From: Candidatus Fermentibacterota bacterium
GTDB lineage: Bacteria; Fermentibacterota; Fermentibacteria; Fermentibacterales; JCC-6
Length of the DNA stretch: 64,000 nucleotides
Direction: 5' to 3'
Assembly (NCBI GenBank): GCA_963845085.1
Contig: CAWJQI010000004.1
Location: forward strand, 352,001 to 416,000
The notes below the pieces were generated by a model. That model did not search any database, had not been told where the DNA came from, and saw only the letters and a program-made list of their open reading frames with translations. Shown in pieces: positions 4,050 to 64,000 of this stretch (position 1 is the first letter of the stretch; each line of letters starts with the position of its first letter). A program made the position numbers and the translations under genes.

Positions 4050-5645
4050 CTACTGAACCCAGATCACCCTGTCCCGGAAATCCGCTTCTATCGGCGAATG
4101 GGTGCGAATATAATCCATGACCGTATCCATGAGATTGTACCCGGTATGCCAGGGCTCGAGATGCGTGAGTATCCCGTAACCGACGCTTCCGTATGCCAGA
4201 TAGCCAGTTGTTGCGAACGTGTAGGTCGAGCAGGCGGAAAGGGGCTCGCCCTGCACCAGCGGGTTCTCAATCTTGCCGCCGTCAGGGTTCGACTGGTTTC
4301 GCAGGCAGGTGAAGCCCGAGACCTGCATGTCCCTGCGGCGCCCCTGCATGCCTGTCTCAAGTATTTCGAGCAGCTCAGCGCCCGTCACGCTGAACGCAAG
4401 GATGTCCTCCTCAAAAGGCAGTGCAGCGTAAACCGTCCTGGCCGTGACATCCCCGCGCGGAATCGAAGCCCTTATGCCCCCCCTGTTCACGAGGGCGACA
4501 TCTGCCCCGGCCCTCCAGCGTATCGCGTCGGCAACAAGCCTTCCCAGAGGATGCTCGGCGCCACCCCTGGGTATCTCGGTGAGGGCCTGCCCCAGCACTT
4601 CGTCCATGCCCTCTTCCGCAACGAGCCGGAATGACTCCACAAGACCCTCGGTCACCGTATCCGGCCAGAACTGCTCATGGAGAAGGCTCACGTACTCTCC
4701 GCCAAGAGGGCAGTCGTACCCAGTAACTGAACCGGTCCCGGTATCCAGCCGCAACCTTATCCAGCCGATGCCCGTCCCGTTGCCGTAACCCTGAACGACG
4801 ATGGAATGCGTGACGGGATTCACCCATGGCTCCTCGAGACCGGCGTGGATGTGGCCGCTCACCACGACGTCGATCCCGGGAACGAGACATGTGAGCTCCG
4901 CATTGTTGAGGGCAAAGTTCTTCGAATAGTCCACCCCGGCATCCCAGGCGGCGAAGACCCGCTCGAGGTAGACCCCGGGGTCCGGGGGCTGGCCAAGGTG
5001 CGAGACGAGGATGATGGTTTCCGCTCCCCCGTTCCGGGCTTCCCTCATGCTTCGCTCAAGAGCCTCGCGCTCGTTGATGAATTCGTAACCCTCAAGGCCG
5101 GCCTCATCGACAAGCGTACGTGTGTCGGGCGTCGCAAGACCGATAAAGGCGGTTCTCACACCGCCGAAATCCATGATCACACTTGGTGTTATCTCCCCTG
5201 GAACGGAATGGTCCGTGGTTTCGAAGTTCGCGCAGATCACTGGAAAATCAGCCAGATCAGCATTCCTCAGCGCTGTTTCCGCCCCCCGGTCAAAGTCATG
5301 GTTCCCGAGGGTCATCATGTCATATCCCACGGAATTCATCCACTCCACGACAAACGCGCCGGAATCATGGCTGCCGACGGGAGTGCCCTGCCAGATGTCA
5401 CCGGCATCGATGAGAACCACATACTCGCCGGCTTCCGTGCAGCTTCTGCGCACTTCCCCGACGAACGAGGAAATCCATGCCCCCCCTCCGATCTCCGGAG
5501 GGAAGTCGGGGTTCAGGAAGGTGGCGTCAGAATCGACGATTCCACCATGCATATCATTGGTATGCAATATGTTGAGGTATACGGTGCCTCCGTGGGAGAT
5601 CGCCGCCGGAAGCAATACCGGCAACCAGGCCCTGATCAACGCCAC
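4050..5645 (-). CDS. Secreted bifunctional metallophosphatase / 5'-nucleotidase (UshA/CpdB-like)
   Basis: Signal peptide; HTNDMHG, DAGD, GNHDFD, SHLG, GHIH metallophosphoesterase motifs; NRGGIR...LPF C-terminal domain. Confidence 0.9.
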   Translation of the reverse strand: MALIRAWLPVLLPAAISHGGTVYLNILHTNDMHGGIVDSDATFLNPDFPPEIGGGAWISSFVGEVRRSCTEAGEYVVLIDAGDIWQGTPVGSHDSGAFVVEWMNSVGYDMMTLGNHDFDRGAETALRNADLADFPVICANFETTDHSVPGEITPSVIMDFGGVRTAFIGLATPDTRTLVDEAGLEGYEFINEREALERSMREARNGGAETIILVSHLGQPPDPGVYLERVFAAWDAGVDYSKNFALNNAELTCLVPGIDVVVSGHIHAGLEEPWVNPVTHSIVVQGYGNGTGIGWIRLRLDTGTGSVTGYDCPLGGEYVSLLHEQFWPDTVTEGLVESFRLVAEEGMDEVLGQALTEIPRGGAEHPLGRLVADAIRWRAGADVALVNRGGIRASIPRGDVTARTVYAALPFEEDILAFSVTGAELLEILETGMQGRRRDMQVSGFTCLRNQSNPDGGKIENPLVQGEPLSACSTYTFATTGYLAYGSVGYGILTHLEPWHTGYNLMDTVMDYIRTHSPIEADFRDRVIWVQ

Positions 5646-6781
5646 GGGGGGACCTCCCCGAAGCTTCTTGAAAGACCCAGCACCAGGGCTGCTGAGAGCG
5701 TGTTCATGGAAAGGCTGTCGCCGGATTCGAAGCTCGGAAGCCCGGCCACCTCGGCCTGTCTCCAGCCCGAGGGAGTGAGCAGGAGACCCGCGTCGAACCT
5801 GTAGCTGTCGAACGCAAATCCTGCACCCGCGGTAAAGCTGAACGTGTCGAGCGCCCTGTGGAGGGGGGAGGTTCGGTAGTCGAAACCGAAGCGGGCGACC
5901 GGACCTCCGGGTAGGTGGTTCTCAACACCGCCCCTGATCCCCCAGGTGTTCCCCGCACCGGGTTCGCCTTCATCCCTCCAGTCAGCCTCTGCGACGAAAA
6001 GGCTTCTGAGCCTGTTTCCCGGAAGGTAGCCGACACCGCACCGAACCTCCAGGGCGTCATCGATTCCGTCATCGACCCCCCCGGACCTCACGTTCCATCC
6101 CATCGGTGCAGCCACCCCCGCCGCCAGACGAACCCTTTCAAGAACGATCTCCCCCGAAGCCCTCAGAACCGCCCCGGAAATACTCTCGTCAAGCTCCCAT
6201 GACTCGTCCGGTTCGGACGGGTCGGAATACGCCTTCGTCCAAGCCACATTGCGGCTGCCCGTTACGATACCCCCGCCGGCCCCGACGGACAGACCCGGGG
6301 TTGGGCTCCACCCCGCGGACGCTCCGAACTCCCAGAGCAGTCCGGTGCATTCGAGCGTTTCGAGTGCGGTCCGCACGTACGCCTCATCCCTTGTGGTTCG
6401 AGCGAAGTCATACGAGAAGCTTCCGACAGCCCTCGCCCCGGCGGCCACCCCCCAGTTTCGCAGGCGGAACACGCCGGCGAAGCCGCCCGGAGAAAGCACG
6501 GCACTCTGGTTGAAGGCATTTTCGGATTCGCCTACAACCCCCCCGAAAGAATCGTAGACCGTGCGGGTCCTTGATTCCCTGAAGTAGACGAGGGAGCCCG
6601 TGAAATCGGCGCGGTTCCCGGAAACGCACGCATAGGCGGGGTTCTCAAGGGCACCGAAGGCGGAGCGGTCCATGAAGGTGCCGCCTCCCATTCCGGCGGA
6701 GCCTGCGCAGGTTGCCGGGTTCCGGCCACCGAGCCACATCACCTCGGGAAGCCCGCAAAGAAGTGCAATAAGCGCGATCAT
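5636..6781 (-). CDS. Outer-membrane beta-barrel protein (FadL/PorV-like)
   Basis: SAGMGG...ENPA N-terminal motif typical of FadL/PorV barrels; alternating amphipathic strands. Confidence 0.65.
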   Translation of the reverse strand: MIALIALLCGLPEVMWLGGRNPATCAGSAGMGGGTFMDRSAFGALENPAYACVSGNRADFTGSLVYFRESRTRTVYDSFGGVVGESENAFNQSAVLSPGGFAGVFRLRNWGVAAGARAVGSFSYDFARTTRDEAYVRTALETLECTGLLWEFGASAGWSPTPGLSVGAGGGIVTGSRNVAWTKAYSDPSEPDESWELDESISGAVLRASGEIVLERVRLAAGVAAPMGWNVRSGGVDDGIDDALEVRCGVGYLPGNRLRSLFVAEADWRDEGEPGAGNTWGIRGGVENHLPGGPVARFGFDYRTSPLHRALDTFSFTAGAGFAFDSYRFDAGLLLTPSGWRQAEVAGLPSFESGDSLSMNTLSAALVLGLSRSFGEVPPWR

Positions 6782-6793
6782 CAGTTCTCCCGC

Positions 6794-9232
6794 CTACCAG
6801 CGATAGTCAAGCTGGAAACGCAAGCCATACTCAACCAGGCGGTCGGTAAAATCGCCCGGTACCGTCTCATCGCCTCCCCCGAAGTGATACGAATCGTCGG
6901 GGTCGGGACGGTAGAAACCGTTGTGCGGATAGCAGGTTTCCTTTCTCAGAAACCTCATCCTGAGCTGAATGCTGTCGGAGAGGACGTTTTTCAGCGTGAG
7001 GTAGAACTTCGTGCCCCTGCCGTCGAGAAAGTCGATGCCCGCATCCTCGAACTCCCACTGGCTCATCCCGTTCGTCGTCCAGAGAGTCGCGCCTCCAAGG
7101 AGGGACATGTCCCCGCTGAAGTCGTGCTCCCACTGCAGGCTGACAAAGCCCCCGTCCATGAGCCTGTCATCCCCGTAAAGGGGGTTCGGCGCGAGTTCGA
7201 CCATTCCGTACCGCAGGGACACGCTCACGTAGTCCCCGCCGGTGGGAAGGATGAACGTTCTGAATGTGTACTCGGAGGTCCGGGAGTCAGTGTCGAGAGC
7301 TTCCTTCGGTTTGTACTTGTCCTGAAACTTGTATTTGAGCCTGAAGCGAACCGGCCACACCGGCCGGTACTCAACCTCGCCCTGGAACCTGAGGTTTCCG
7401 GTGTCATGCGGGAGGGTCCTCCACAGATCGAGGTAAACCTTGGTGAATGTGATCCGGCCGCTCAGCTGGTACCTGGTCTCAAGGTAAACGCCCTCCTCGG
7501 GCTTTGGGACGGGCAGGCCGGCAAGCTGGCCGTAGAGGGGGTCGTTAAATCTGTAGGGGCTCTCGAACACGGTGTCATCAAACCTCAGTTGCTCCGTGAA
7601 ACCGCGGTTGTACGGATTTGTGAAGCCGGGTTCGTAACGGCGGTAGATGCAGGTAACGTAATGCCAGTCATTCCTCCAGTCCGCCCTTGCCAGCCCTGCC
7701 GCAGCTCCGTTGTCCTGAAGCGCAAGCTCGCCCTCCAGACTCAACCTGTCCAGAACGGTCTGGCCGCAGAAGCCCGTGAAGTCCATCCGGTCGCCCGAGG
7801 GCATGAGCGAATACTCCGGACAATCCCAGACGTAGCCGTCATTCGGAATATCCAGGGTTTCCTCGTCGGGGTTGAGGGAATCGCCGTATGCAACGCTCAT
7901 GAAACCTGCTCCAAGCGCCGTCCCGACAGGAAGGCGACCGCCGAGGTCGATGAACCCGTAGGCGCCCGCTGTTGTTTCGTCAATCATGCCTGAAGTGGCT
8001 TCCGTTCTGAAACGGCTCTGAATCAGAACATTGGGGGTCCCGTCGGGGTTCATCACCGCGTCCCGCCTGTTCCACGAGCCGAACCCGTAAAGTATGAAGT
8101 CGCCGGTCCTGACCTCGACGGCGCCGCCCGAGAGGGCATGCTGCCGTGTGGCGGTCAGGTCCGGCATCAGACCCCAGCTCCTCTGGGTGTTCCTGTATCG
8201 GAGTTCATCGGTGTTGTCCATAAAAAGCCCCTGCCCGAGGCTCAGGCGGTAATTGCCCACCAGTATTCTTCTTACCGCACCCTCCGGACGCCACTCGGCG
8301 AACACCTTTGCCGTTTCGAAGCCGCCTTCCGTCTCAAGTTCGTTGGTGAATGTGAAGAGGGGGCCTTCGACGGCGGTCGCGGATCGATCCCTTGAAAACC
8401 TTATGCCCGCCTGAAAGCTCCCGCCGGTGCTGAAGCGGAGTTTGTGGCTGAAGCCCGGCCTGTCGCGCGAGGCCAGAAGGGTCTCCCTTTCGGCAAGCAG
8501 CTGTCCGGCGAGGGCAGCGCTGTCAACCGGGCTTCCGGAATAGTCCCTGGAACCATCCGAAAGGGCTGTGATGGCGGATTCGACCTCGGAGATCATTCCC
8601 TCAAGGTTCTCGTCGATCCCGTCCCTTCCCGAGCCACCCGAGAAGACGAATCTGTAGTTTCCTCCGAAACCGGAACGGACAGAGGGCCCGGCCGACACGA
8701 AGTCCCTCATGTTCCGCCAGGCGAAGTGGGTCAGATTGTCCGTGTCCCTCAGGGAGGTGATGCTGCCGGGAGCGCCGGTGCTTCTGAGCCTGGCATCCAC
8801 CGCCGCGGCATCGATCAGGCTGACACCGTCAAGACCGCGAAGGTCCCAGTGCGTGGCCCGCTCGAGCGGCAACGGTCTTTCGAGAAGGTCCTCCCAGTAC
8901 TCGACCTCGGAGGCGCCCGGGCCGTCTTCCTGGGAGAGTTTGTCCATAACGTCCATGATCTGCGGGCTGATCCTTCCTGCTTCGGGCGGAAGCACCACTG
9001 TGTTGCCGATCAGCCATTCCAGCGTTTCCGGGTCGAACCCGGGTATGGACAGCACTTCGTAGATGTTCTCGAGCCCCCCGGTCTCAAGGATGTATGCATG
9101 AAGGGCGAGAGCCTGAGAATCCGTCAGACCCGGCAGATCCAGAAGCTCCTGAAGGCGGGCGGAGTTAAGGTCGGGCCCGGTCATCCCGAAGGCCGAGAGG
9201 ACGAGAAGAATGGCGGGAAGGCTAGAACGCAT
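6794..9232 (-). CDS. Helix-hairpin-helix (ComEA-like) domain fused to an outer-membrane beta-barrel
   Basis: Signal peptide; DLNSARLQELLDLPGL and ATHWDLRGLDGVS HhH motifs; VGNYRLSLGQGL motif; C-terminal FQLDYRW beta-signal. Confidence 0.75.
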   Translation of the reverse strand: MRSSLPAILLVLSAFGMTGPDLNSARLQELLDLPGLTDSQALALHAYILETGGLENIYEVLSIPGFDPETLEWLIGNTVVLPPEAGRISPQIMDVMDKLSQEDGPGASEVEYWEDLLERPLPLERATHWDLRGLDGVSLIDAAAVDARLRSTGAPGSITSLRDTDNLTHFAWRNMRDFVSAGPSVRSGFGGNYRFVFSGGSGRDGIDENLEGMISEVESAITALSDGSRDYSGSPVDSAALAGQLLAERETLLASRDRPGFSHKLRFSTGGSFQAGIRFSRDRSATAVEGPLFTFTNELETEGGFETAKVFAEWRPEGAVRRILVGNYRLSLGQGLFMDNTDELRYRNTQRSWGLMPDLTATRQHALSGGAVEVRTGDFILYGFGSWNRRDAVMNPDGTPNVLIQSRFRTEATSGMIDETTAGAYGFIDLGGRLPVGTALGAGFMSVAYGDSLNPDEETLDIPNDGYVWDCPEYSLMPSGDRMDFTGFCGQTVLDRLSLEGELALQDNGAAAGLARADWRNDWHYVTCIYRRYEPGFTNPYNRGFTEQLRFDDTVFESPYRFNDPLYGQLAGLPVPKPEEGVYLETRYQLSGRITFTKVYLDLWRTLPHDTGNLRFQGEVEYRPVWPVRFRLKYKFQDKYKPKEALDTDSRTSEYTFRTFILPTGGDYVSVSLRYGMVELAPNPLYGDDRLMDGGFVSLQWEHDFSGDMSLLGGATLWTTNGMSQWEFEDAGIDFLDGRGTKFYLTLKNVLSDSIQLRMRFLRKETCYPHNGFYRPDPDDSYHFGGGDETVPGDFTDRLVEYGLRFQLDYRW

Positions 9233-10040
9233 ACCTGACCCCCGCCTGATGGGTGGGGCTCAGCCGGGAATGGGTTTCGACGGCGTAGGAGAAAACAACA
9301 CCGGACACCTCGGCACTGAAGCCTCCGGAAACCGCTGCGGGCCCGCTTCTGGCTCCGGCGAACAGAGTGAGCGGACCAAGCGGCAGGGCCTGCCCCACAC
9401 GAAGCACGGTGCTTTCGAAATCGCGCGACAGCGCGAGGGCGCTTGCCATGCCGGGCAGGGGTTCGTACCTCACACCCAGGTCCATCCGGTTCCCGAGGTG
9501 CTCGCCGCCCTGCCCGATCCTCGCCTCGAAAGGGTTCCGCAGACATGCGCCAACGCTCCACCTGTCGAATACCCTTGCCTGAAGGCCCGCCGTCATGTCC
9601 ATTGTCCATGCGCTTCCATAACTGCCGACGCCGTCGGAGATCGACACCCTTCCCAGAACAGGCTGAAACCCGACGGCAAAGTCCTCCGACAACAGAAACG
9701 AGGCCGTGACGTGTACAAGCTGTTCCGAATAAAGCTCTCCCCCGAACCATCTCATCCCGCCGCCAAGGGTCCAGCCCCCGGGGAGTGGATGGGCAAGATC
9801 AGCGCCGGCCGTTGCGAAATCGGTCAAACTGTATGGCAGCCTTGCTGCTGCTGACGCCGAAGCCCTCGTTTCGAAGGATATCGAGGCAGGGTTCCAGCAG
9901 ATCCCGGAAAGCCCGGGCATCACAACTCCGGTTCCTCCCATTGCCCTGCACTCGGTTCCCAGTTCAAGTTCTTCAAAGGCTGCCGCGGCCACCCCTGCCA
10001 AAAGCAGAACGATGATCGAATGAAACACAAACGCTCTCAT
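9222..10040 (-). CDS. PorV/PorP-like outer-membrane beta-barrel
   Basis: Signal peptide; AFE...RAMGG...WNPA; C-terminal HSRLSPTHQAGVRYAF. Confidence 0.7.
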   Translation of the reverse strand: MRAFVFHSIIVLLLAGVAAAAFEELELGTECRAMGGTGVVMPGLSGICWNPASISFETRASASAAARLPYSLTDFATAGADLAHPLPGGWTLGGGMRWFGGELYSEQLVHVTASFLLSEDFAVGFQPVLGRVSISDGVGSYGSAWTMDMTAGLQARVFDRWSVGACLRNPFEARIGQGGEHLGNRMDLGVRYEPLPGMASALALSRDFESTVLRVGQALPLGPLTLFAGARSGPAAVSGGFSAEVSGVVFSYAVETHSRLSPTHQAGVRYAF

Positions 10041-10049
10041 GTCGTCCCC

Positions 10050-11057
10050 TTACCGAAGCGGGGAGGCCACTACGACTGTCTCCGTCGTTGTGAGCCTTTC
10101 CCCGGCGGGGGTGGTTCCTTCAAGGAGCAGAACGTACTGCCCCATCGGCAGAATTTCGTACGAGTCGCCCCGGCCGTCCCAGACTGTCACGTCACCGGCT
10201 GGCATGTTCTCGGCGAGTCGTGCGACCGCCCTGCCGCACCTGTCAAAAACGGTCAGGTCGAGAAGGGTGCCGGAAGGCCCTCCGTACGTGATCGAAACAA
10301 CCTCGCCGAGTGAAGGTGCGAACGGATTGCCCTGCACATCGAGGTGAAACGTTGCCGGGATCGAGGGGTCGTACACCTCAAGGTCCTGCTGGTAGCGCGG
10401 AAGCAGCTGGTAACCGGTCGAATACGGGGGCTCGGACGAGTACTGGCCCGAGATCCCGGTCATGACCAGCCTTGTTCCGGGGGAGATGCCCGAAACGTCG
10501 ATCCCCGTGGTCTCATTCACCCTGACAGCGATGAGCGCGTTTCCGTTCCAGGCGCTGAAATTCCAGCCGCCGCCCGACATGGAGGGGGTGTCGATCACCG
10601 TCGCCCAGTGTTCACCTGCAATGTCGCCGACGACGACAAGCATCCCCTCCAACGCCTCACCGATGTTCCTGTGCCTTGATAGGTACAGTGGTTCGGGCGC
10701 ACCGGGGCTTCCGATCAGCTCGAAGTCGGACGGGTCTCCCGGCGAGATCTCGGTCAGGCCGTTATAGAACATTATCTCGCCGGTGATCCGGTACTCGTCA
10801 CCCGCGTTGATCTCACCAGGCGAGGCCTGGCTGTAGGCGTACACGTTTATGCCTGCCGTGTCATCCTGAACGAAAAAGCTGAGCCCCGTTGTCGAGAAAA
10901 GCATGCCCTCGCAAGTGGCAACGGCCTGGATCGTGACGGTCTGTCCCAGAAGGTCGGGTATTCCGTTCCCGTCCGAATCCGCCCTGGCGTCGGCCACGGT
11001 CAAAACCTGTGCCCACAACCGGCAGGCCACCACCGCGGGAACCAGGAATCGTTTCAT
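10050..11057 (-). CDS. Secreted tandem OB-fold protein with FlgD-Ig/T9SS-like C-terminal sorting domain
   Basis: GQTVTIQAVAT...FFVQDDTAGINVY and GISGQY...YQLLPR OB-fold patterns; CTD GNPFAP...VFDRCGRAV...WDGR...GQYVL. Confidence 0.65.
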   Translation of the reverse strand: MKRFLVPAVVACRLWAQVLTVADARADSDGNGIPDLLGQTVTIQAVATCEGMLFSTTGLSFFVQDDTAGINVYAYSQASPGEINAGDEYRITGEIMFYNGLTEISPGDPSDFELIGSPGAPEPLYLSRHRNIGEALEGMLVVVGDIAGEHWATVIDTPSMSGGGWNFSAWNGNALIAVRVNETTGIDVSGISPGTRLVMTGISGQYSSEPPYSTGYQLLPRYQQDLEVYDPSIPATFHLDVQGNPFAPSLGEVVSITYGGPSGTLLDLTVFDRCGRAVARLAENMPAGDVTVWDGRGDSYEILPMGQYVLLLEGTTPAGERLTTTETVVVASPLR

Positions 11058-11067
11058 TCAAACCCCC

Positions 11068-12453
11068 TCAGCGTTCATTTTCGAGCCGGATCTCGGCATC
11101 GGTGAGGGACGCAGCCCTGTCCAACGCCTCCTCCGGCTCCATCCTTCCGTAAAGCACGATCTCGAGAGCTTCCGACAGGAACTCCCTGCCATCGTACCAG
11201 GCGATGGTCTGGGGTTCGTACAGCGCTGTCTCCACCTGTGCTACCACAGCGTAAAGGCCCGGGTACTCGATGAACTTCTCCTGCATGAGGGGATGATCGA
11301 GGCTTGACCTCCTTGCGGGAAGATAGCCGCTTCCGGCTGACCACCGTGCCTGCTGCACGGGCTCGGTAAACCATCGGATGAATTCCCAGCCGGCCTCCAC
11401 GACGCGCGGGTCCTCATTGCGGAAAAGCACCACATTGGTTCCCGCGATGTAGACCCTTCGATAATCATCACCCGGCAGGGGCGCAACGCCCACCGTGAAT
11501 ACGGGTTCTCCGGCCGCCCTTCTCCGCTCCATCTCCTGCTCCATGAAGGCCAGGCTTGTGACCGATCCCTGGACCTGCCCGAGCCCGCCTTCGAGAAAGT
11601 TCCTCTGGTGGTCGAAGCCCGACGAAAGGTAAGCGGTTCCATCGACATGAATGAGGCATGCCAGGTACTCGAGCGCCTCAACGCCCTCGGGTCCGTTGAA
11701 TGCAGCCCTTGTGCCGGAATCGCCAAGCAGGGCGCCTCCGGCCTGGGCGAGGAGGCATTCGAAGGTCCAGACGCTCGGGCTGAAGGCCGTACCCCATCTG
11801 TCGCCGGCGTCAAGCAGGTCGCCGTCGCCGTTGGCATCAAGGCAGAGCGCCCTCAGAAGCTGTCTCTGTTCATCCCATGTGGCCGCCGGAACAAGCCCGA
11901 GCCTGCGGTACAGGTCTGCATCGTAGTAGACCAGCGGAACGCTCTTGTTGAATGGAAAGCTGTAGATGCGCCCGTCATAGGTGTTGTTGTCCCTGAAGAC
12001 CGGGAAGAAATCGTTCCAGTCATCCCGGCTGTAGAGGGTGTCGGCTTCCATCAATGAGTCAAGCGGGACCACAACTCCTCCGCGGATGAGCTGCGCTGTC
12101 CAGGTTTCGTAGGCCTGTGCGATGACGGGAGGTGAGCCTGCCATGACCGAAGCCATGATCTTCTGGCTGAGGGCGCGGTAGTTGCCCATGTTGACGGGGA
12201 TCACCCGGATCTCCGGATGAGTGCTGTTGAAATCGGCGATCAGGGAATCCTCAAGCACATCGCCGAGCGGCCCGCCCATGGCGTGCCAGAAAACAACTTC
12301 GACCGGCCCGTCCGCGCCGCCACGACCACCGCAGCCGCACAGCAGGCAGGCGAAGGCCATATAAAGCGTCCTGGCTCTCAGCGGAACCTCCATCTCCGGG
12401 AAAAGCGATGCGGTAAGATGCAGCACCGCCGGATTCGGGACAAGAAGCGGCAT
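11068..12453 (-). CDS. ABC transporter solute-binding lipoprotein (UgpB/family 1-like)
   Basis: Lipobox-like LLCGC; FWHAMGG, PFNKS, GTNVVLF, SGYLP; start may be 12393. Confidence 0.85.
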   Translation of the reverse strand: MPLLVPNPAVLHLTASLFPEMEVPLRARTLYMAFACLLCGCGGRGGADGPVEVVFWHAMGGPLGDVLEDSLIADFNSTHPEIRVIPVNMGNYRALSQKIMASVMAGSPPVIAQAYETWTAQLIRGGVVVPLDSLMEADTLYSRDDWNDFFPVFRDNNTYDGRIYSFPFNKSVPLVYYDADLYRRLGLVPAATWDEQRQLLRALCLDANGDGDLLDAGDRWGTAFSPSVWTFECLLAQAGGALLGDSGTRAAFNGPEGVEALEYLACLIHVDGTAYLSSGFDHQRNFLEGGLGQVQGSVTSLAFMEQEMERRRAAGEPVFTVGVAPLPGDDYRRVYIAGTNVVLFRNEDPRVVEAGWEFIRWFTEPVQQARWSAGSGYLPARRSSLDHPLMQEKFIEYPGLYAVVAQVETALYEPQTIAWYDGREFLSEALEIVLYGRMEPEEALDRAASLTDAEIRLENER

Positions 12454-12539: not shown

Positions 12540-13025
12540 GTGAAACCGGCTTATGCCTTGTCCTGCCTTCTCCTTGCTGCCTGTAACGGCCCAGGCGACC
12601 CGGCCGATGCACTTGACGCCTTCTTCGACGCGGCGAAGGAAGGGAAGGGTGAACTCGCTGTTTCGTACCTTTCGGGCGAGGCAATCGACTCCCTTGGTGC
12701 GGGATTGAACCTTGCGGAGATGAGGGGCAACCCTGAACGCGCCTCCTCAATGCTGGCGTCGTATGGAATTGCCATTTCTGAGGCCGAGTTGGACACGATC
12801 ACGACGGGGCCTCTGCTGGAACGGCTTGTTGAATCGCCTCTTTTCGAAGGCTTGATGGAGGATGCGTTACTTGAGACCGAAGGTGTTTCCATTGAAGGCC
12901 GGAGGGCAATTGTGAACGCCACCGTTGTCTTTCTTGGAGATACCACGACGGGTGCTGTGGAAATGGTGCTTGAGAACAACCAGTGGAAGATCGGCAGCGA
13001 AGGTTTGCGCTTCGCGCTTTTGTGA
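12540..13025 (+). CDS. DUF4878/NTF2-like lipoprotein
   Basis: Lipobox LAAC; P...FFDAAKEG; C-terminal MVLENNQWKI. Confidence 0.7.
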   Translation: MKPAYALSCLLLAACNGPGDPADALDAFFDAAKEGKGELAVSYLSGEAIDSLGAGLNLAEMRGNPERASSMLASYGIAISEAELDTITTGPLLERLVESPLFEGLMEDALLETEGVSIEGRRAIVNATVVFLGDTTTGAVEMVLENNQWKIGSEGLRFALL

Positions 13026-13051
13026 ACCCCAAAACGAACAGGAGAAAGACG

Positions 13052-13516
13052 ATGAAGAAGCTTCTCATTATCACGGCCATCGTGGCCATGATCGCTGGCT
13101 GCGGAGCCGCCATGGGTCCCAAGGCCACCGTTGAGAAGGCGTTCAATGCCCTTAAGACCGGCGACGGAAAGGCCCTCATCGAGTGCATGTCCGCAGAGCA
13201 GATCGCCGAACTGAACACCTCTATCGAGGAAATGAAGGCCAACCCCGAGGAATCCGCCCAGATGATGGCTTTCATCGGTGTCGAGGTTACCGCCGAAGAG
13301 ATCACCGCCCTTGATGCAGCCGGCTTCGTCACCCTCCTTCTTCAGTCGGAGATGTTCGGCGCCGAGTTCGCCGAGATGGAGATCACCTTCGGTGCCGAGA
13401 GGATCGAAGGCGAGCAGGCCTGGGTCGAGGTTACGACCGATGGCGAGACCGAGGAAGTAATGCTTGTGAAGGAAGACGGCCGCTGGGTCATCTCCGAAGG
13501 CTTCGACATGATGTAG
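13052..13516 (+). CDS. DUF4878/NTF2-like lipoprotein (paralog of the upstream gene)
   Basis: Lipobox IAGC; PKATVEKAFNALKTGD; LVKEDGRWVI; AGGAG SD. Confidence 0.75.
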   Translation: MKKLLIITAIVAMIAGCGAAMGPKATVEKAFNALKTGDGKALIECMSAEQIAELNTSIEEMKANPEESAQMMAFIGVEVTAEEITALDAAGFVTLLLQSEMFGAEFAEMEITFGAERIEGEQAWVEVTTDGETEEVMLVKEDGRWVISEGFDMM

Positions 13517-27820: not shown

Positions 27821-28327
27821 TCACTCCGGAAGAACCCGCAGATGAACCCTGCGGTTCTGGGAGAAGGCGAATTCGTCAGTGCCGGTCACAAAGGGTCTTT
27901 CCTTGCCGTAGCTGACCGTTGAAAGCCTTGAGGCCGGAATGCCGTAGTTGACAAGGTAATCGTAGACGGACTGTGCCCTTCTCTCGCCGAGGGCGAGGTT
28001 GTAGTCAACGGTTCCGCGTTCGTCGCAATGGCCTTCGAGAAGGACCCTGAACCCTGTGTTGCTCATGAGGTAGCCGGCGTCGAACATGAGGGCTTCGAGG
28101 GCTGCGCTGCTGAGTTCATTCGAGTCGTACTCGAAGAACACATCGCGGACTGACTCCTGGTGGCGGGCAAGTGCGGCGTTGAGCACGGCAATGGGATCTT
28201 CCTCCCACACGCCGACCTCAAGGGTGTCGGTATCGATGACGTCTTCCTCGATGACCGTCGTCCTTCCGCAGCCCGCGGCCAGGATCGCGAGGATGGCAAC
28301 CGCAAAAAGCATTGCCTGTTTTTTCAT
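27821..28327 (-). CDS. pal: Peptidoglycan-associated lipoprotein
   Basis: LAAGC lipobox; EGHCDERGTVDYNLALGERRA, SYGKERP, QNRR. Confidence 0.95.
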   Translation of the reverse strand: MKKQAMLFAVAILAILAAGCGRTTVIEEDVIDTDTLEVGVWEEDPIAVLNAALARHQESVRDVFFEYDSNELSSAALEALMFDAGYLMSNTGFRVLLEGHCDERGTVDYNLALGERRAQSVYDYLVNYGIPASRLSTVSYGKERPFVTGTDEFAFSQNRRVHLRVLPE

Positions 28328-28340
28328 GTTCCATTTCCTT

Positions 28341-29519
28341 TCACTGAAGCACCGGCGACCAGGCCGGGCAGTAGCTCTCTCCACCCGTGGAGAGGCGGTG
28401 AACCGTCAAACCGTTCAATTCCATGATGTAGATGCTGCGCACACCGTCCATGTCGCTCGAGAAGGCGAGATGGCGTCCTGTCGGGGACCAGACAGGGTCC
28501 TCGTTCATCGAACCGCGGGAAGTAACCTGCCTGATCTCCGTCCCGTCGGAGTTCATGACGAAGATGTGAAAACCGCTGCCCGAGCTGGCGCAGTACGCTA
28601 TCCTGTCGCCCTGCGGCGACCATGCCGGGCTGTCGCAGTAACCGTGGGAAAAACCCGCCCGCTCTGCGCTGCCACCCGATGAACTCATCCAGTAGAGCTG
28701 AGGGTAGCCGACCCTGTCGCTCGTGAAGATCAGTTGAAGACCGTTTGGGGAAAAGCTCGCCGAGGTCTCGATGCTCGACCTTGCCGTGAGGCGGACCGGG
28801 CTTCCCCCGGAAATGCTCTGGAGCCAGATATCGCTCGACCCCTCTTCCGACCGAGTATATGCGAGGCGGCTGCCGTCGGGGCTCCAGGCGGGCGCCGTGT
28901 TCACACCCCCGGAAATGATGCGGGATGCCGAGCCGGAGGCGAAGGAATAGGTGTAGATGTCACCCGTGCCGGCCCTGTAGGAAGTGAAGGCAATGCGGTC
29001 GCCCAGGGGGCTCCAGGCGGGTGTCGTGATAACCTGGGTGTCGCGCATGAGAGAGGTGGATGAACGGGGATCGATGGTTTTGACGACCAGCTTCCACTCC
29101 TCGGCGTTGCGTACGATGTAGGCTATGCGCGTCGAGGCTATGCCCTGTTCGCCAGTGAGGACGAAGACCAGGTCATCGGACAGGTTGTGCACCATGTCGT
29201 AAAGCGATGCGCCCTGGTATTCCTTGACAAGTACCCCCTCGCCGTCGGCCTCGGCCCGTGCCGAGATATTCCAGCTTCCATCCCTGCCCGAGACCCTGAC
29301 CGACAGCTTTGCGAATGCCTCGTTTTCGGGAGCGGTTATCAGAAGCCCCGAAAAGTCGATGTCGAACACAAGCTGATCATGGACTGTTGCGGCCTCGCTG
29401 CCGGAACCTTCGACGCGGATGCTCACGGGAAGGCACTGGGCGCCTATCGGGGTCATGGGAAGGAAATCGCCTGCCAGAAGGCAGACCGGCAACGCCAAAA
29501 CCAGGGATAAAAGTCTCAA
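28341..29519 (-). CDS. tolB: TolB beta-propeller (PD40 repeats)
   Basis: LTGEQGIASTRIAY; repeated PAWSPDG-type motifs. Confidence 0.9.
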   Translation of the reverse strand: MRLLSLVLALPVCLLAGDFLPMTPIGAQCLPVSIRVEGSGSEAATVHDQLVFDIDFSGLLITAPENEAFAKLSVRVSGRDGSWNISARAEADGEGVLVKEYQGASLYDMVHNLSDDLVFVLTGEQGIASTRIAYIVRNAEEWKLVVKTIDPRSSTSLMRDTQVITTPAWSPLGDRIAFTSYRAGTGDIYTYSFASGSASRIISGGVNTAPAWSPDGSRLAYTRSEEGSSDIWLQSISGGSPVRLTARSSIETSASFSPNGLQLIFTSDRVGYPQLYWMSSSGGSAERAGFSHGYCDSPAWSPQGDRIAYCASSGSGFHIFVMNSDGTEIRQVTSRGSMNEDPVWSPTGRHLAFSSDMDGVRSIYIMELNGLTVHRLSTGGESYCPAWSPVLQ

Positions 29520-29544
29520 AGGTTTCTCCCCTCAGGGTTCCGTT

Positions 29545-30291
29545 CTATTCGGGACCCAGAAACTCTATGCTCAATCTTACCGGAGTGGTCCGGCCCGGGG
29601 GCATGGGCGGAATGTTTGCCGTTTCAAGGGCGTTCTCCACTGCGCGGTCAAAAGCGGCGTTGCCGCTTCGGCGGACCACCTCGTACCTGTGCGTGCCGTC
29701 GGTGTTCACCGTGAAATGAATCTGGTATGTCTCGACGGGCTCCATCGATGTTACGAAATTCCTGCGGATCGCCGCGAACACCCTTCCCTCGTAGCTGGCG
29801 GGTCCGGGCGCCCCCGCACCTGCCTCGCCCGAACCACCGACCCCGATGAACCCGCCTGCGGCCTGGGATTCGGCCTGCTGCTGGGTCTCGGTGGGAGTAA
29901 CCTCGGAAGGCTCGACCTCCGAGGGCTGGACCTCGGCGGGCTGGACCTCTTCCTGAAGCTCTTCCTGAAGCTCTTCCTGGCTCTCTTCCGCCTCCACGGT
30001 CTCCTCGAAAACTTCGAGTATCTCGAGGGTTTCCTCGACCCTGACCTCTTCGACTGCAACCTGGGCGGTGGTGCCTTCGGCGCCGGGCGCCGGATCCAGC
30101 AGGATCATTTCAACAGAAACCATGGAGCCGCCCCCCGTAATCACGGGGGTGGAACCGGCATTCATCACAACCCCGAGCAGTATTACAAAGACCAGTATGC
30201 CTGCATGAAGGCCGAATGCCATCACCATGGACTGCCGGTCGATCGCAGGCGCCCTGCTGACAGGTCTGCGGAATGCTTCAGAGCTGTTCAC
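29545..30291 (-). CDS. tolA: TolA/TonB-like energy transducer
   Basis: Single TM helix with HAG, acidic low-complexity linker, RRSGNAAFDRAV...IPPMP C-terminal domain; start uncertain. Confidence 0.75.
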   Translation of the reverse strand: MNSSEAFRRPVSRAPAIDRQSMVMAFGLHAGILVFVILLGVVMNAGSTPVITGGGSMVSVEMILLDPAPGAEGTTAQVAVEEVRVEETLEILEVFEETVEAEESQEELQEELQEEVQPAEVQPSEVEPSEVTPTETQQQAESQAAGGFIGVGGSGEAGAGAPGPASYEGRVFAAIRRNFVTSMEPVETYQIHFTVNTDGTHRYEVVRRSGNAAFDRAVENALETANIPPMPPGRTTPVRLSIEFLGPE

Positions 30292-30691
30292 GCGCCGACT
30301 CCTGCACAAGACCGACATTCTCGTATCCGCCCCGTCGAAGCTCTGTGAGTGCAAGGGCCAGAACCGAGTATTTTGCCTCACCGTCCGCCCTGACATAGGC
30401 TTCCGTTCTGCCGGAGGCCACGGCTTCCTCGGCAAGCCCGGCGATGTCGGCGGGGGCGACCGGTTCTCCCGCAACAGTGATGTTCCCGAGCGAGTCGATC
30501 TCAACGAGAAGCGCGGTTCCGGGATCGAGCCGGTTGATTATGCGCCCGATGTCGGTGCTTGGAGGATGAACGTCCGCGCTTCGGTGGATCACCGGGGCAC
30601 TGAGCATGAAAATGACGAGCAGGACGAACGTTACATCAATGAGATTGGTGAGGTTGATGGACGAGAACTGCTTGTACCTGGGGCGTATCAT
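30278..30691 (-). CDS. tolR: TolR/ExbD
   Basis: INLTNLIDVTFVLLVIFMLSAP; VRADG. Confidence 0.88.
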   Translation of the reverse strand: MIRPRYKQFSSINLTNLIDVTFVLLVIFMLSAPVIHRSADVHPPSTDIGRIINRLDPGTALLVEIDSLGNITVAGEPVAPADIAGLAEEAVASGRTEAYVRADGEAKYSVLALALTELRRGGYENVGLVQESAREQL

Positions 30692-31356
30692 GTAATGCTG
30701 CCCCTTCTGCACACGTCGACGAGCTCGGAAAGGAACCTGTCGATCTCCCCCGCCAGGTCGTCGACCTTTCCAACGGAATAATTATGGAACACGTTGGCCG
30801 GGATCGCTGCCAGAAGCCCGGCAACCGTGGTTGTCAGGGCGGCGGCGATGCCCGATCCGACTGCGCTGATGTCGGCGGAGCCCATTTCACGCATGCCGAT
30901 GAAACTTGCCAGAACCCCCCAGACGGTTCCGAGAAGGCCGAGCAGCGGGCTGATGCTCGTGACCGTGGCAAGGAAACCGATGTTGCGGCTTCTCTGGGCA
31001 AGGTCCTCACTGGCTTCCCGCTCAAGAGCGCCGTGAAGGATCGTCACTTCTTCCGCGGTCAGCGGCCCGGTAAGGCCAAGGTCGATCCTGCGGCGGAGGA
31101 AACGGCCGGCTTCCGTGTACATCCTGGCCAGCGGACCCATGTCCGAGCTGTTCTTGAGGAAATCGCCGCTGGGGGGACGGCCCGTCGTTCTGAGGGCTTC
31201 CATGAACATTCTGGAGGCCCCGCTTATCCTCGAAAGCTCCCGAAGCTTGGAGATTGCGACGGTCCAGGCGCCCAGTGAAAGCACGAGGATGAGCAGGAGA
31301 ATGAACTTGGTGAATCCGTCGGAGGCTGTCACCGTTGACCAGACAAGTCCCAGCAT
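30688..31356 (-). CDS. tolQ: TolQ/ExbB
   Basis: SPLLGLLGTVWGV, GIAAALTTTVAGL, AIPA. Confidence 0.88.
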   Translation of the reverse strand: MLGLVWSTVTASDGFTKFILLLILVLSLGAWTVAISKLRELSRISGASRMFMEALRTTGRPPSGDFLKNSSDMGPLARMYTEAGRFLRRRIDLGLTGPLTAEEVTILHGALEREASEDLAQRSRNIGFLATVTSISPLLGLLGTVWGVLASFIGMREMGSADISAVGSGIAAALTTTVAGLLAAIPANVFHNYSVGKVDDLAGEIDRFLSELVDVCRRGSIT

Positions 31357-62557: not shown

Positions 62558-64000
62558 TCAGGTAATGATGCCCATCTTCTCAAGAAGATCGCGCTGTACG
62601 TTCGGCGGAGTGTTCTCATACCTCAGGAACTGCATTGAAAAGCCGGCGCGTCCCTGAGTGATGCTTCTGACATTACTGGAGTAGCCGAACAATTCGGCAA
62701 GGGGCACCCTTGCGCGCACGTCCCGTGCCTCACCCCTCTGGTCGATGGCGTCGACCTGGCCCCGGCGCGAGTTGATGTCTCCGAGAACGTCTCCGAGATA
62801 GTCGATGGGTGTTATCACATCCAGTGACATGATGGGCTCCCGGATCACGGGCGTTCCGTCCTTCAGGGCGTCGCGAAGGGCCGATGCGGCCGCAGAGGAG
62901 TACCCGAGCTCTGTGGAATCAGTCTCGTGCACCCTGGCTTCGACCACTGTGATCCTCACACCGTCGACTGGAAAACCGGCAAGTGCGCCGGCCCCGATGC
63001 TGCCCCTGATGCCGGCCTTGGCAGCTTCAACGAACGAGGCGGCAGAGACCGGGAACCGTACACTCAACCTCGACTCCCGCAGGCGTCGGCTCGACAAGAA
63101 CAACGGCATGGCCGAAGTTGCCCCTGCCGGCGATCAGCCTTTCGAAAACGCCCTCCCCTCTCCCTGTCCGGGAGACCCCTTCGCGATATGAAACCTGCGG
63201 GTTCCCGGTGTGGACCTGGAGCTTCCGCTCACGCTTGAGCCGGTCCACGACTATCTCGAGGTGAAGCTCGCCCATGCCCATGATAAGGTTCTGCCCGGTG
63301 TCGCGGTCGACCCCGACCTTCAGGCTGGGATCTTCGCTGGTCATCTCGGAAAGGGCATCCTCGAGCGCCTTGTCGTCCCTGGCGCCCACCGGCTCGATCG
63401 CCATCTGCATGACGGGTTCGGCGAACTCGATGGACTCGAGGGTGATGGGCTGGTCGGGTATTGTCAGCGTGTCTCCCGTGGCGGCGTCCTTCATGCCTGC
63501 AGCTGCGATATCGCCGGCCTGGACGGCGTCGAGATGATCGCGTTTGTCCGCGTGCATGCGGACAAGGCGCATCATTCTCTCCTTCTTGCCGGTTCGGTTG
63601 TTGTAAACGGCCTGCCCGTCTTTGGCGGTGCCCGAATAGACCCTCATGTAGGCAAGCCTTCCAAGGTGGGAGTCGGTCTGGATCTTGAAAACAAGCGCCG
63701 TGAACGGCGCGTCGACAGACCTTTCTCTTTGGGCCGGTACCCCCGATGGCGTCCTTCCCGTCACGGGAGGAAGCTCCTCGGGAGCTGGGAGCCAGTTCAC
63801 GATCGCGTCAAGAAGCCGCTGCACGCCGACATTGCGCAGGGCGGCACCGCAGAGAACCGGCACGAAGCGTCTTTCGAGAGTGCCGGTGCGCATGAACGCG
63901 ATGATCTCGGCGGGGCCGAGACCTCCCGAAAAGTAGAGCTCCATGGCTTCCTCGCCGAGGTCGGCCACGGCTTCCTGGATCGCTTCAAGGGCTGCAGCCG
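62558..64000 (-). CDS. fusA: Elongation factor G (3' part; frameshift near 63050)
   Basis: PVLCGAALRNVGVQRLLDAI, RVYSG, EDPS, GMGELHLE, PQVSYRE, EPIM, VPLAELFGY, TQGRA. Confidence 0.92.

Follow-up and report, generated by a model that had tools for sequence, protein, structure and literature searches.

A six-gene locus encoding a helix-hairpin-helix outer-membrane barrel in Candidatus Fermentibacterota: a putative module for scavenging nucleic-acid fragments

Genes and proteins of the six-gene locus

The window analysed here, a stretch of 64,000 nucleotides (nt) from a Candidatus (Ca.) Fermentibacterota bacterium, corresponds to contig C4:352001-416000 of the 88%-complete genome G000 (GCA_963845085.1; CAWJQI010000004.1). 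It contains six tightly packed minus-strand open reading frames (ORFs) that run from position 12453 down to 4050 with intergenic gaps of 10, 9, -11, 12, and -10 nt, which confirms the set of co-oriented, nearly contiguous genes described in a first-pass annotation of this DNA. In the order of transcription, they encode a solute-binding protein (461 amino acids (aa) as called), a tandem OB-fold protein (335 aa), a small outer-membrane barrel (272 aa), a large barrel with helix-hairpin-helix (HhH) domains (812 aa), a FadL-like barrel (381 aa), and a 5'-nucleotidase (531 aa). Named homologues, with 52-55% identity, belong to Ca. Fermentibacterota. The genes are discussed below as a candidate module for the uptake of nucleic-acid fragments. 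A flavin oxidoreductase gene that begins 13 nt past the nucleotidase gene lies outside this module, because it is missing there in 4 of 20 loci from the phylum and no homologue was found in 15 loci of other phyla.

The first gene (11068..12453, minus strand) encodes a CUT1-family ATP-binding cassette (ABC) solute-binding lipoprotein (SBP_bac_8, E 3.6e-29) of the clade comprising binders of UgpB type, of glycerophosphocholine, and of the dinucleotide uridylyl-3'-5'-phosphoguanosine (U3G). At least 90% of the 16 family members compared share the lipobox residue Cys41, and translation probably begins at Met21 (12393) or further downstream. The best matches in the PDB were the 7C0F series (E 1e-33), followed by UgpB (E 1e-27), and a profile of the 16-member family scored 216 bits with 7C0F and 194 bits with UgpB. 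7C0F is the U3G-binding protein of Thermus thermophilus; in a study that lists it, the phosphate is held by two Tyr and two Ser residues in the UgpB, glycerophosphocholine, and U3G binders, and a glycerol clamp of two Trp residues is described for UgpB only (PMC12718374). The window protein has the phosphate positions in common with both 7C0F and UgpB: Y92, S171, S297, and Y377 are invariant in 10 of 10 rows aligned with E. coli UgpB, and in a wider 16-row set both Tyr residues are invariant, the Ser positions differing in two rows. In contrast, it is ~25% identical to UgpB and lacks the Trp clamp, which reads WQGW in E. coli; WxxW occurs at that site in none of the 16 operon-encoded binding proteins. 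The UgpB NCBIfam model was matched at E 4.6e-30, with 105 bits against a cut-off of 411. Sequence comparison thus favours a phosphoester- or dinucleotide-type ligand and sets the protein apart from plain sugar binders. Specificity for an unrelated sugar, which the first-pass annotation had named as a result that would speak against its nucleic-acid hypothesis, is therefore not indicated by the sequence.

The second gene (10050..11057, minus strand) encodes a predicted surface nucleic-acid binder, a distant relative of DUF5689 (DdbD-like) proteins. Its AlphaFold2 (AF2) model (pLDDT 88.6) contains two OB folds and resembles dsDNA-binding HIN domains, the top Foldseek matches being p204 HIN-dsDNA (HIN-200), Teb1, and POT1. 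Residues 231-333 resemble the C-terminal domains (CTDs) of PorU (Z 10.9) and PorZ (Z 9.7). The earlier description of a tandem OB fold with a sorting-type CTD is borne out by these matches. FlgD_ig was matched by 14 of 18 family members and DUF5689, weakly, by 5 of 18; the window protein matched neither at E 0.01, and the DUF5689 matches are stronger in longer orthologues (E 4e-14 in WOR-3, and 1.8e-11). The features of a type IX secretion system (T9SS) cargo are present, i.e. a C-terminal Ig-like sorting domain in the protein and a match to the SprA translocon family, above cut-off, in the genome, which contains 72 CTD-bearing ORFs. The SprA/Sov match spans two adjacent ORFs (471 and 1430 aa; G000:C1:243313-248968) directly before homologues of PilB and PilT.

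The 272-aa barrel (9222..10040, minus strand) is PorV/PorQ-like and probably serves the OB protein as its own shuttle and anchor. It matched NF033709 (PorV_fam) at E 7.7e-7, below the cut-off; PorV_fam was matched by 40 of 42 family members, and the family profile matched PorV (6h3i) at E 1e-7. Of the previous label 'PorV/PorP-like', only the first half holds, since PorP (TIGR03519) matches were weak and limited to 2 of the 42 members (best E 4e-4).

The 812-aa protein (6794..9232, minus strand; HHH_3, E 4e-5) is the predicted main pore. In its AF2 model (pTM 0.74), two helical HhH domains (residues ~19-80 and ~119-180) precede a barrel (~189-812) with 24 strands of at least eight residues each. 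Residues 17-81 match the ComEA fold (8DSS) with Z 11.2 and a root-mean-square deviation of 1.7 A over 65 residues. In the second HhH domain, D141 and N174 are present in 64 of 64 family members, R162 in 62, and R176 in 56, and the barrel part conserves many Arg, Lys, and aromatic residues. By sequence, the HhH domains match solved structures and the barrel part matches none. Assignment of the barrel to a family by fold search was rejected, as the nearest folds are generic barrels at 7-13% identity, e.g. the usher pores FimD (Z 13.2) and PapC (Z 12.4) at 9-11%. Distant kin exist in the Bacteroidota: a 608-aa protein that aligns over 555 columns (HHalign 99.1%) is in turn linked to a 684-aa HhH protein of Bacteroidia, and an Atlas search also points to a Bacteroidota family of ~680-aa HhH barrels. 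In alignments of several TonB-dependent receptors with the model, the match starts at residue 91-103, which hints weakly at a plug-like position of the second HhH domain (model residues ~91-180) in the barrel mouth. The HhH barrel had no match in a plasmid collection.

The 381-aa barrel (5636..6781, minus strand), whose gene constantly accompanies that of the HhH barrel, falls into the FadL/TodX/BamG superfamily, with profile matches to TodX (E 2e-16), BamG (3.5e-11), and FadL (6e-9). It is not a BamG member: the BamG model (NF053685) was matched at E 1.2e-5 with 24.6 bits against a cut-off of 250, and 48 of the 64 family members match it as distant relatives only. The distances within the HhH and FadL barrel families are correlated (Spearman 0.59), which was ascribed to shared ancestry and not used as support.

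The last gene (4050..5645, minus strand) encodes a UshA-type 5'-nucleotidase/metallophosphoesterase with Metallophos and 5_nucleotid_C domains. At what we take to be the functional positions of E. coli UshA, the residues D31, H33, D83, N115, H116, D119, H216, and H265 are kept; F411/Y482 and R392 occupy the base-stacking (F429, F498) and Arg410 positions, and Arg375 and Arg379 are not kept. The metal-ligand and catalytic residues are retained in 50-53 of 53 family members. The active site is intact; with the UshA equivalog model, the protein scored 163 bits (cut-off 600). It had been annotated as secreted; the 5'-nucleotidase assignment stands, and the protein is probably periplasmic rather than exported to the surface, because its N-terminus has a hydrophobic stretch (signal peptides were assessed by visual inspection) and a sorting domain is lacking. 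Elsewhere, the genome encodes another 5'-nucleotidase that is only distantly related (30% identity; G000:C5:389080-390936; L072:4081-5937).

Conservation across phyla and joint loss with an ABC importer

The order of the six genes is the same in 20 of 20 Fermentibacterota loci, which were picked from 66 barrel-positive genomes with long contigs favoured. This alone proves little, because the flanking genes are also conserved within the phylum; in other phyla (Edwardsbacteria, WOR-3, Zixibacteria, and Cloacimonadota-like loci), the flanks differ while the module persists, in whole or in part. Among the 15 loci examined in genomes of Edwardsbacteria, WOR-3, Zixibacteria, and others, all those with enough sequence have the FadL barrel (13/13) and the nucleotidase (13/13) following and the PorQ-like gene preceding (13/13), and the FadL barrel follows the HhH barrel in 30 of 30 WOR-3 loci. 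In the best 80 of 416 metagenome loci from more distant relatives, 68 of 71 have the FadL barrel gene directly after that of the HhH barrel, and in 56 of 58 the nucleotidase gene comes next. The HhH barrel, the FadL barrel, and the nucleotidase are a near-invariant core, and the identical order in Fermentibacterota, taken with the conservation of the core elsewhere, places the arrangement beyond chance. A lack of synteny in other genomes, which the first-pass annotation had named as evidence against its hypothesis, was not observed. Directly upstream of the PorQ-like gene in the same 80 loci, we found the OB protein in 17 of 23 cases and another CTD protein in 5 (either in 22/23); the three of these five that were scanned all have lamin-tail domains. 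Named relatives include bins of Cloacimonadota, Gemmatimonadota, and Dependentiae. The HhH barrel is patchily distributed, being present in 66 of 121 WOR-3 genomes and 2 of 81 Zixibacteria genomes.

Additional genes are found within some of these loci. In two WOR-3 loci (L061 and L062:13371-14749), a PLD-family gene of Nuc size (185 aa) lies inside the run, between the FadL barrel and a nucleotidase shortened to 274 aa. In Edwardsbacteria and some WOR-3 loci, a functionally uncharacterized CTD protein of ~450 aa is encoded after the nucleotidase and is accompanied by a PorV-like barrel of its own, which makes a second cargo-shuttle pair (L051:15342-17569, L058:15039-17131, and L063:11486-13674).

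The outer-membrane parts are coupled to one CUT1 ABC importer, consisting of two permeases and a MalK-type ATPase. In Edwardsbacteria, two permease genes stand before the binding-protein gene, and genes for a DHH phosphoesterase and the MalK-type ATPase stand after the module, all six module genes being in one run. The Fermentibacterota permeases, 52 and 48% identical to those of Edwardsbacteria, are encoded 290 kb from the operon, with the ATPase at a third site. Among 46 high-quality genomes of the phylum, the full barrel, the OB protein, and the permease are each present in 44 and the ATPase in 43. Two genomes, G018 (98% complete) and G068 (94%), lack the barrel, the OB protein, the permease, the ATPase, and the binding protein; G009 (90%) lacks the ATPase only. 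A check for clean deletion, covering the operon and permease sites, found both sites contiguous and free of N in G018 and G068, with the flanks of the permease pair joined in both. All six operon genes are gone in G018, and the first five in G068. G018 and G068 represent different genera, the remaining members of which still have the module, so that at least two losses are independent. In a further genome, G023 (67% complete), a stump of the binding-protein gene directly precedes the nucleotidase gene. In WOR-3, where the barrel and binding-protein genes are mostly unlinked (located on separate contigs or at distances of tens to hundreds of kb), 65 of 121 genomes have both, 52 neither, and 4 one alone; the 117 concordant genomes are kin rather than independent cases, and the figures are raw counts.

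The module is independent of ComEC, the presence of one not being tied to that of the other. ComEC was identified in 68 of 70 genomes of the phylum and in all 46 high-quality ones, including both that lack the module; G018 and G068 also retain a gene for an HhH-metallo-beta-lactamase protein, a PorV-like gene, purM, and pyrB. ComEC and MalK are missing from the window's own genome and are present on one contig in a sister genome; we read the absence as incompleteness. The permease pair lies behind the HhH-metallo-beta-lactamase gene in 30 of 30 cases (best 30 of 64 loci), and this gene was considered as a part of the module and rejected, as both deletion genomes keep it. Its product (G000:C4:653808-654878; L071:3809-4879) combines a ComEA-type HhH domain with a metallo-beta-lactamase domain in which the HxHxDH motif is intact. 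It may be a split-off nuclease domain of ComEC, because the ComEC frames of the phylum are short (mostly 390-500 aa, compared with 690-805 aa in five other genomes).

Proposed function and alternative explanations

These genes and models make it probable that the module scavenges nucleic-acid fragments as nutrients. The T9SS would export the tandem-OB protein, and the adjacent PorV/PorQ-like barrel would hold it on the cell surface, where it would bind DNA or RNA. Fragments would then cross the outer membrane via the 24-strand HhH barrel, with the FadL-like barrel acting as a second channel or as a partner, perhaps in a physical complex. In the periplasm, short products that still carry phosphate (di- or mononucleotides) would be bound by the binding protein and handed to the ABC importer. 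The 5'-nucleotidase would free nucleosides and phosphate in parallel and not strictly upstream of import, because the phosphate site of the binding protein is preserved and the nucleotidase gene can persist where the rest is lost; the previously proposed order, dephosphorylation followed by import, is not supported. Cleavage of the polymer would depend on nucleases encoded elsewhere or supplied by other organisms. The evidence favours food (carbon, phosphate, and salvage) as the purpose, i.e. neither auxotrophy nor transformation: nutrient import is preferred to competence because the ABC genes are lost jointly with the module, ComEC is kept, and the binding protein is nearest to a dinucleotide binder. 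Nucleotide auxotrophy was considered and rejected, purM being above the cut-off in 45 of 47 genomes and pyrB in 46 of 47. We suggest with some reserve, as a possibility, that the HhH barrel represents an undescribed class of outer-membrane nucleic-acid channel, independent of TonB and pili: a 24-strand pore of usher size that works with the FadL-like barrel and the T9SS-displayed OB protein, lets oligonucleotides through, feeds a dinucleotide ABC importer, and is the main route for extracellular DNA and RNA as food in several abundant, uncultured phyla of the FCB group.

Several observations weigh against nucleic-acid scavenging. No nuclease domain was found in the six proteins (Pfam and NCBIfam), nor any nuclease among the 20 CTD proteins scanned out of 72, nor any Endonuclease_1 in the 88%-complete genome, and the substrate may for this reason be oligonucleotides or nucleotides produced by others. 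The SusCD-independent nucleic-acid utilization proposed in the first-pass annotation is partly supported, by the synteny, the joint loss with the ABC genes, the phosphoester/dinucleotide clade of the binding protein, the HIN-like OB folds, and the intact nucleotidase, and the operon contains no nuclease. OB folds can bind non-nucleic ligands too. The canonical HhH hairpin has a hydrophobic residue and Gly after Pro-Gly; the second hairpin Gly is lost in the HhH domains of the barrel, position 37 being mostly T/S/P and position 67 D/T/S across 64 members (Gly at position 67 in 4/64), and the first domain is acidic (net -9). The earlier description as a ComEA-like outer-membrane protein thus holds for the fold and not for the hairpin motif, and DNA binding by the HhH domains, as then stated, is not supported. 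The preference of the binding-protein family for 7C0F over UgpB amounts to a margin of only 22 bits, and the Edwardsbacteria protein taken alone ranks UgpB (E 1.7e-45) above 7C0F (5.8e-39). The PorQ-like gene is directly upstream in only 27 of 58 metagenome loci (best 80 of 416), many of which are without PorQ-like and OB genes. The nucleotidase, retained in G068 and G023 after loss of the rest, is not strictly tied to the module. The phylum provides two loss events, at most three, one of them in a reduced genome (G018; G068 is not reduced), and the kinship of the WOR-3 genomes tempers the counts there.

Alternatively, the module might take up non-nucleotide phosphoesters, such as those released when phospholipids are broken down, with a FadL-type barrel passing lipids, a UgpB-like protein importing glycerophosphodiesters, and the phosphoesterase trimming them. 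This would account for the sub-threshold UgpB match, for the ranking in Edwardsbacteria, and for the joint loss with ABC genes, which suits any imported solute. FadL/TodX proteins transport hydrophobic compounds, which also counts in its favour. We nevertheless regard it as unlikely, since the WxxW clamp is missing throughout, the family profile favours 7C0F, the nucleotidase keeps base-stacking aromatics, the OB/HIN, HhH, lamin-tail, DHH, and PLD neighbours indicate nucleic acids, and no glycerophosphodiesterase or lipase was found among the 58 + 24 neighbours scanned. Pilus-independent DNA uptake for transformation, with the HhH region as a barrel-fused ComEA ratchet feeding ComEC, is quite unlikely. 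The ComEA fold N-terminal to a large pore, the near-universal ComEC, and the position of the permeases behind a ComEA-like HhH gene are consistent with it, as is the DUF5689 protein RA0C_RS04920, reported to be essential for transformation of Riemerella (PMC8459023). However, the module and the ABC genes are gone from G018 and G068, in which ComEC and the ComEA-like gene persist, homologues of PilB and PilT exist, the barrel HhH domains are degenerate whereas the separate ComEA-like protein has canonical PGxG motifs, and a nucleotidase with a small-solute ABC system suits catabolism better. The 'non-pilus DNA uptake machine' put forward earlier is disfavoured on these grounds.

It is very unlikely that the locus is an envelope housekeeping cluster, i.e. 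T9SS attachment or barrel-assembly (BAM) accessory barrels that stand beside a nucleotidase and a binding protein by chance. PorV/PorQ-like and BamG-like barrels, a surrounding gene order that is largely conserved in the phylum anyway, and the wide occurrence of a related HhH barrel family in Bacteroidota would fit this explanation. It is largely refuted by the clean deletions: two near-complete genomes do without the module and retain a different PorV-like gene, and joint loss with unlinked ABC genes is unexpected for housekeeping barrels. Moreover, the distribution in WOR-3 and Zixibacteria is patchy, and both barrels are far under the BamG and PorV cut-offs.

Relation to described systems and other features of the window

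The closest parallel to a nucleic-acid scavenging module is ddbABCDEF of Bacteroidales, a six-gene locus resembling a polysaccharide utilization locus that acts on exogenous nucleic acid and whose OB binder, DdbD, has a HIN-200-like fold (PMC12478041). Both systems place a HIN-like tandem-OB protein (the DUF5689 surface binder DdbD there, a predicted binder with distant DUF5689 relatives here) beside an outer-membrane transporter, which is a predicted pore here, and periplasmic processing enzymes. In contrast to the TonB-dependent DdbC, the pore here is an HhH-fused 24-strand barrel; DdbD is a lipoprotein lid, whereas the OB protein here carries a T9SS sorting domain and is encoded next to a PorV/PorQ-like barrel; and the FadL-like barrel, the 5'-nucleotidase, and the CUT1 ABC system are part of the module only here. 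No TonB-receptor or plug family was matched by any of the six proteins (Pfam and NCBIfam, E 0.1), and ddb-type nucleases are absent from the six genes, PLD occurring in the two WOR-3 loci and DHH in Edwardsbacteria only. The module would therefore resemble the ddb locus in function without being a member of it, as it has no TonB-dependent DdbC and no nucleases.

A comparable set of proteins in Riemerella anatipestifer, RA0C_RS04915, RA0C_RS04920, and RA0C_RS02645 (PMC8459023), combines an outer-membrane barrel and an HhH protein with a protein of the DUF5689 family, and is implicated in the passage of DNA without a canonical pilus. There, however, the barrel resembles DdbC, a stand-alone HhH protein is predicted to be periplasmic, and transformation depends on ComEC, whereas the window module has been lost independently of ComEC. 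The module also differs from ComEA/ComEC competence (PMC11532111): the HhH fold is similar to that of ComEA, yet it is fused to an outer-membrane barrel, with the hairpin Gly lost and an acidic first domain. In Flavobacterium, T9SS cargo has dedicated, adjacent shuttle barrels, i.e. type B CTD proteins with PorP/SprF, and PorZ with PorQ (PMC12618676). A CTD surface protein is encoded directly before a small barrel in both cases; here, the barrel is PorV/PorQ-like and not PorP-like, the hosts are outside the Bacteroidota, and the pairing is read from gene order. Loci described for monoderm DNA foragers encode nucleases and nucleotidases together with lamin-tail proteins and ABC transporters, and have no outer-membrane parts (PMC8289736). 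Full-text searches found no description of the operon or of the HhH barrel; subscription papers were thinly covered, and a printed description is possible.

These comparisons suggest that the module is a variant nucleic-acid utilization locus with an uncharacterized 24-strand pore family, known here from genes and models. Few systems are known to bring extracellular DNA or RNA across the outer membrane as food, the main ones being the TonB-dependent ddb locus and competence pili. The module would offer a different and testable route, with defined parts and natural deletion variants that mark its boundaries, spread among uncultured anaerobes of Fermentibacterota, Edwardsbacteria, WOR-3, Cloacimonadota, and some Zixibacteria. 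If this is true, it would give a role to an uncharacterized large-barrel family and a first function to the related Bacteroidota HhH barrels, and T9SS-type cargo-shuttle pairs would be at work outside the Bacteroidota.

Another combination of similar domains occurs elsewhere in the genome. A 441-aa protein (G000:C4:581706-583031; L070:6707-8032, minus strand) has a PorQ-like N-terminal part (E 2.9e-26) and a C-terminal HHH_3 domain (E 4e-16), and the neighbours of this small barrel/ComEA-like fusion encode a lamin-tail protein, a DHH phosphoesterase, and a tandem-OB lipoprotein (L070:11709-13283).

In the window, no Rfam matches were found, and promoter and terminator scans were at or below the level of shuffled sequence. 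Two tandem DUF4878 lipoprotein genes (12540-13516) are divergent from the operon; up to four copies are present in one relative (L050) and none in others. Outside the operon, the window otherwise contains housekeeping genes, including a Tol-Pal-type cluster (MotA/TolQ, TonB_2, PD40, and OmpA; 27821-31356) and ribosomal protein/SecY/RpoA operons (43368-63968). At 62558-63968, the domains of EF-G are split over two ORFs, possibly by a frameshift.

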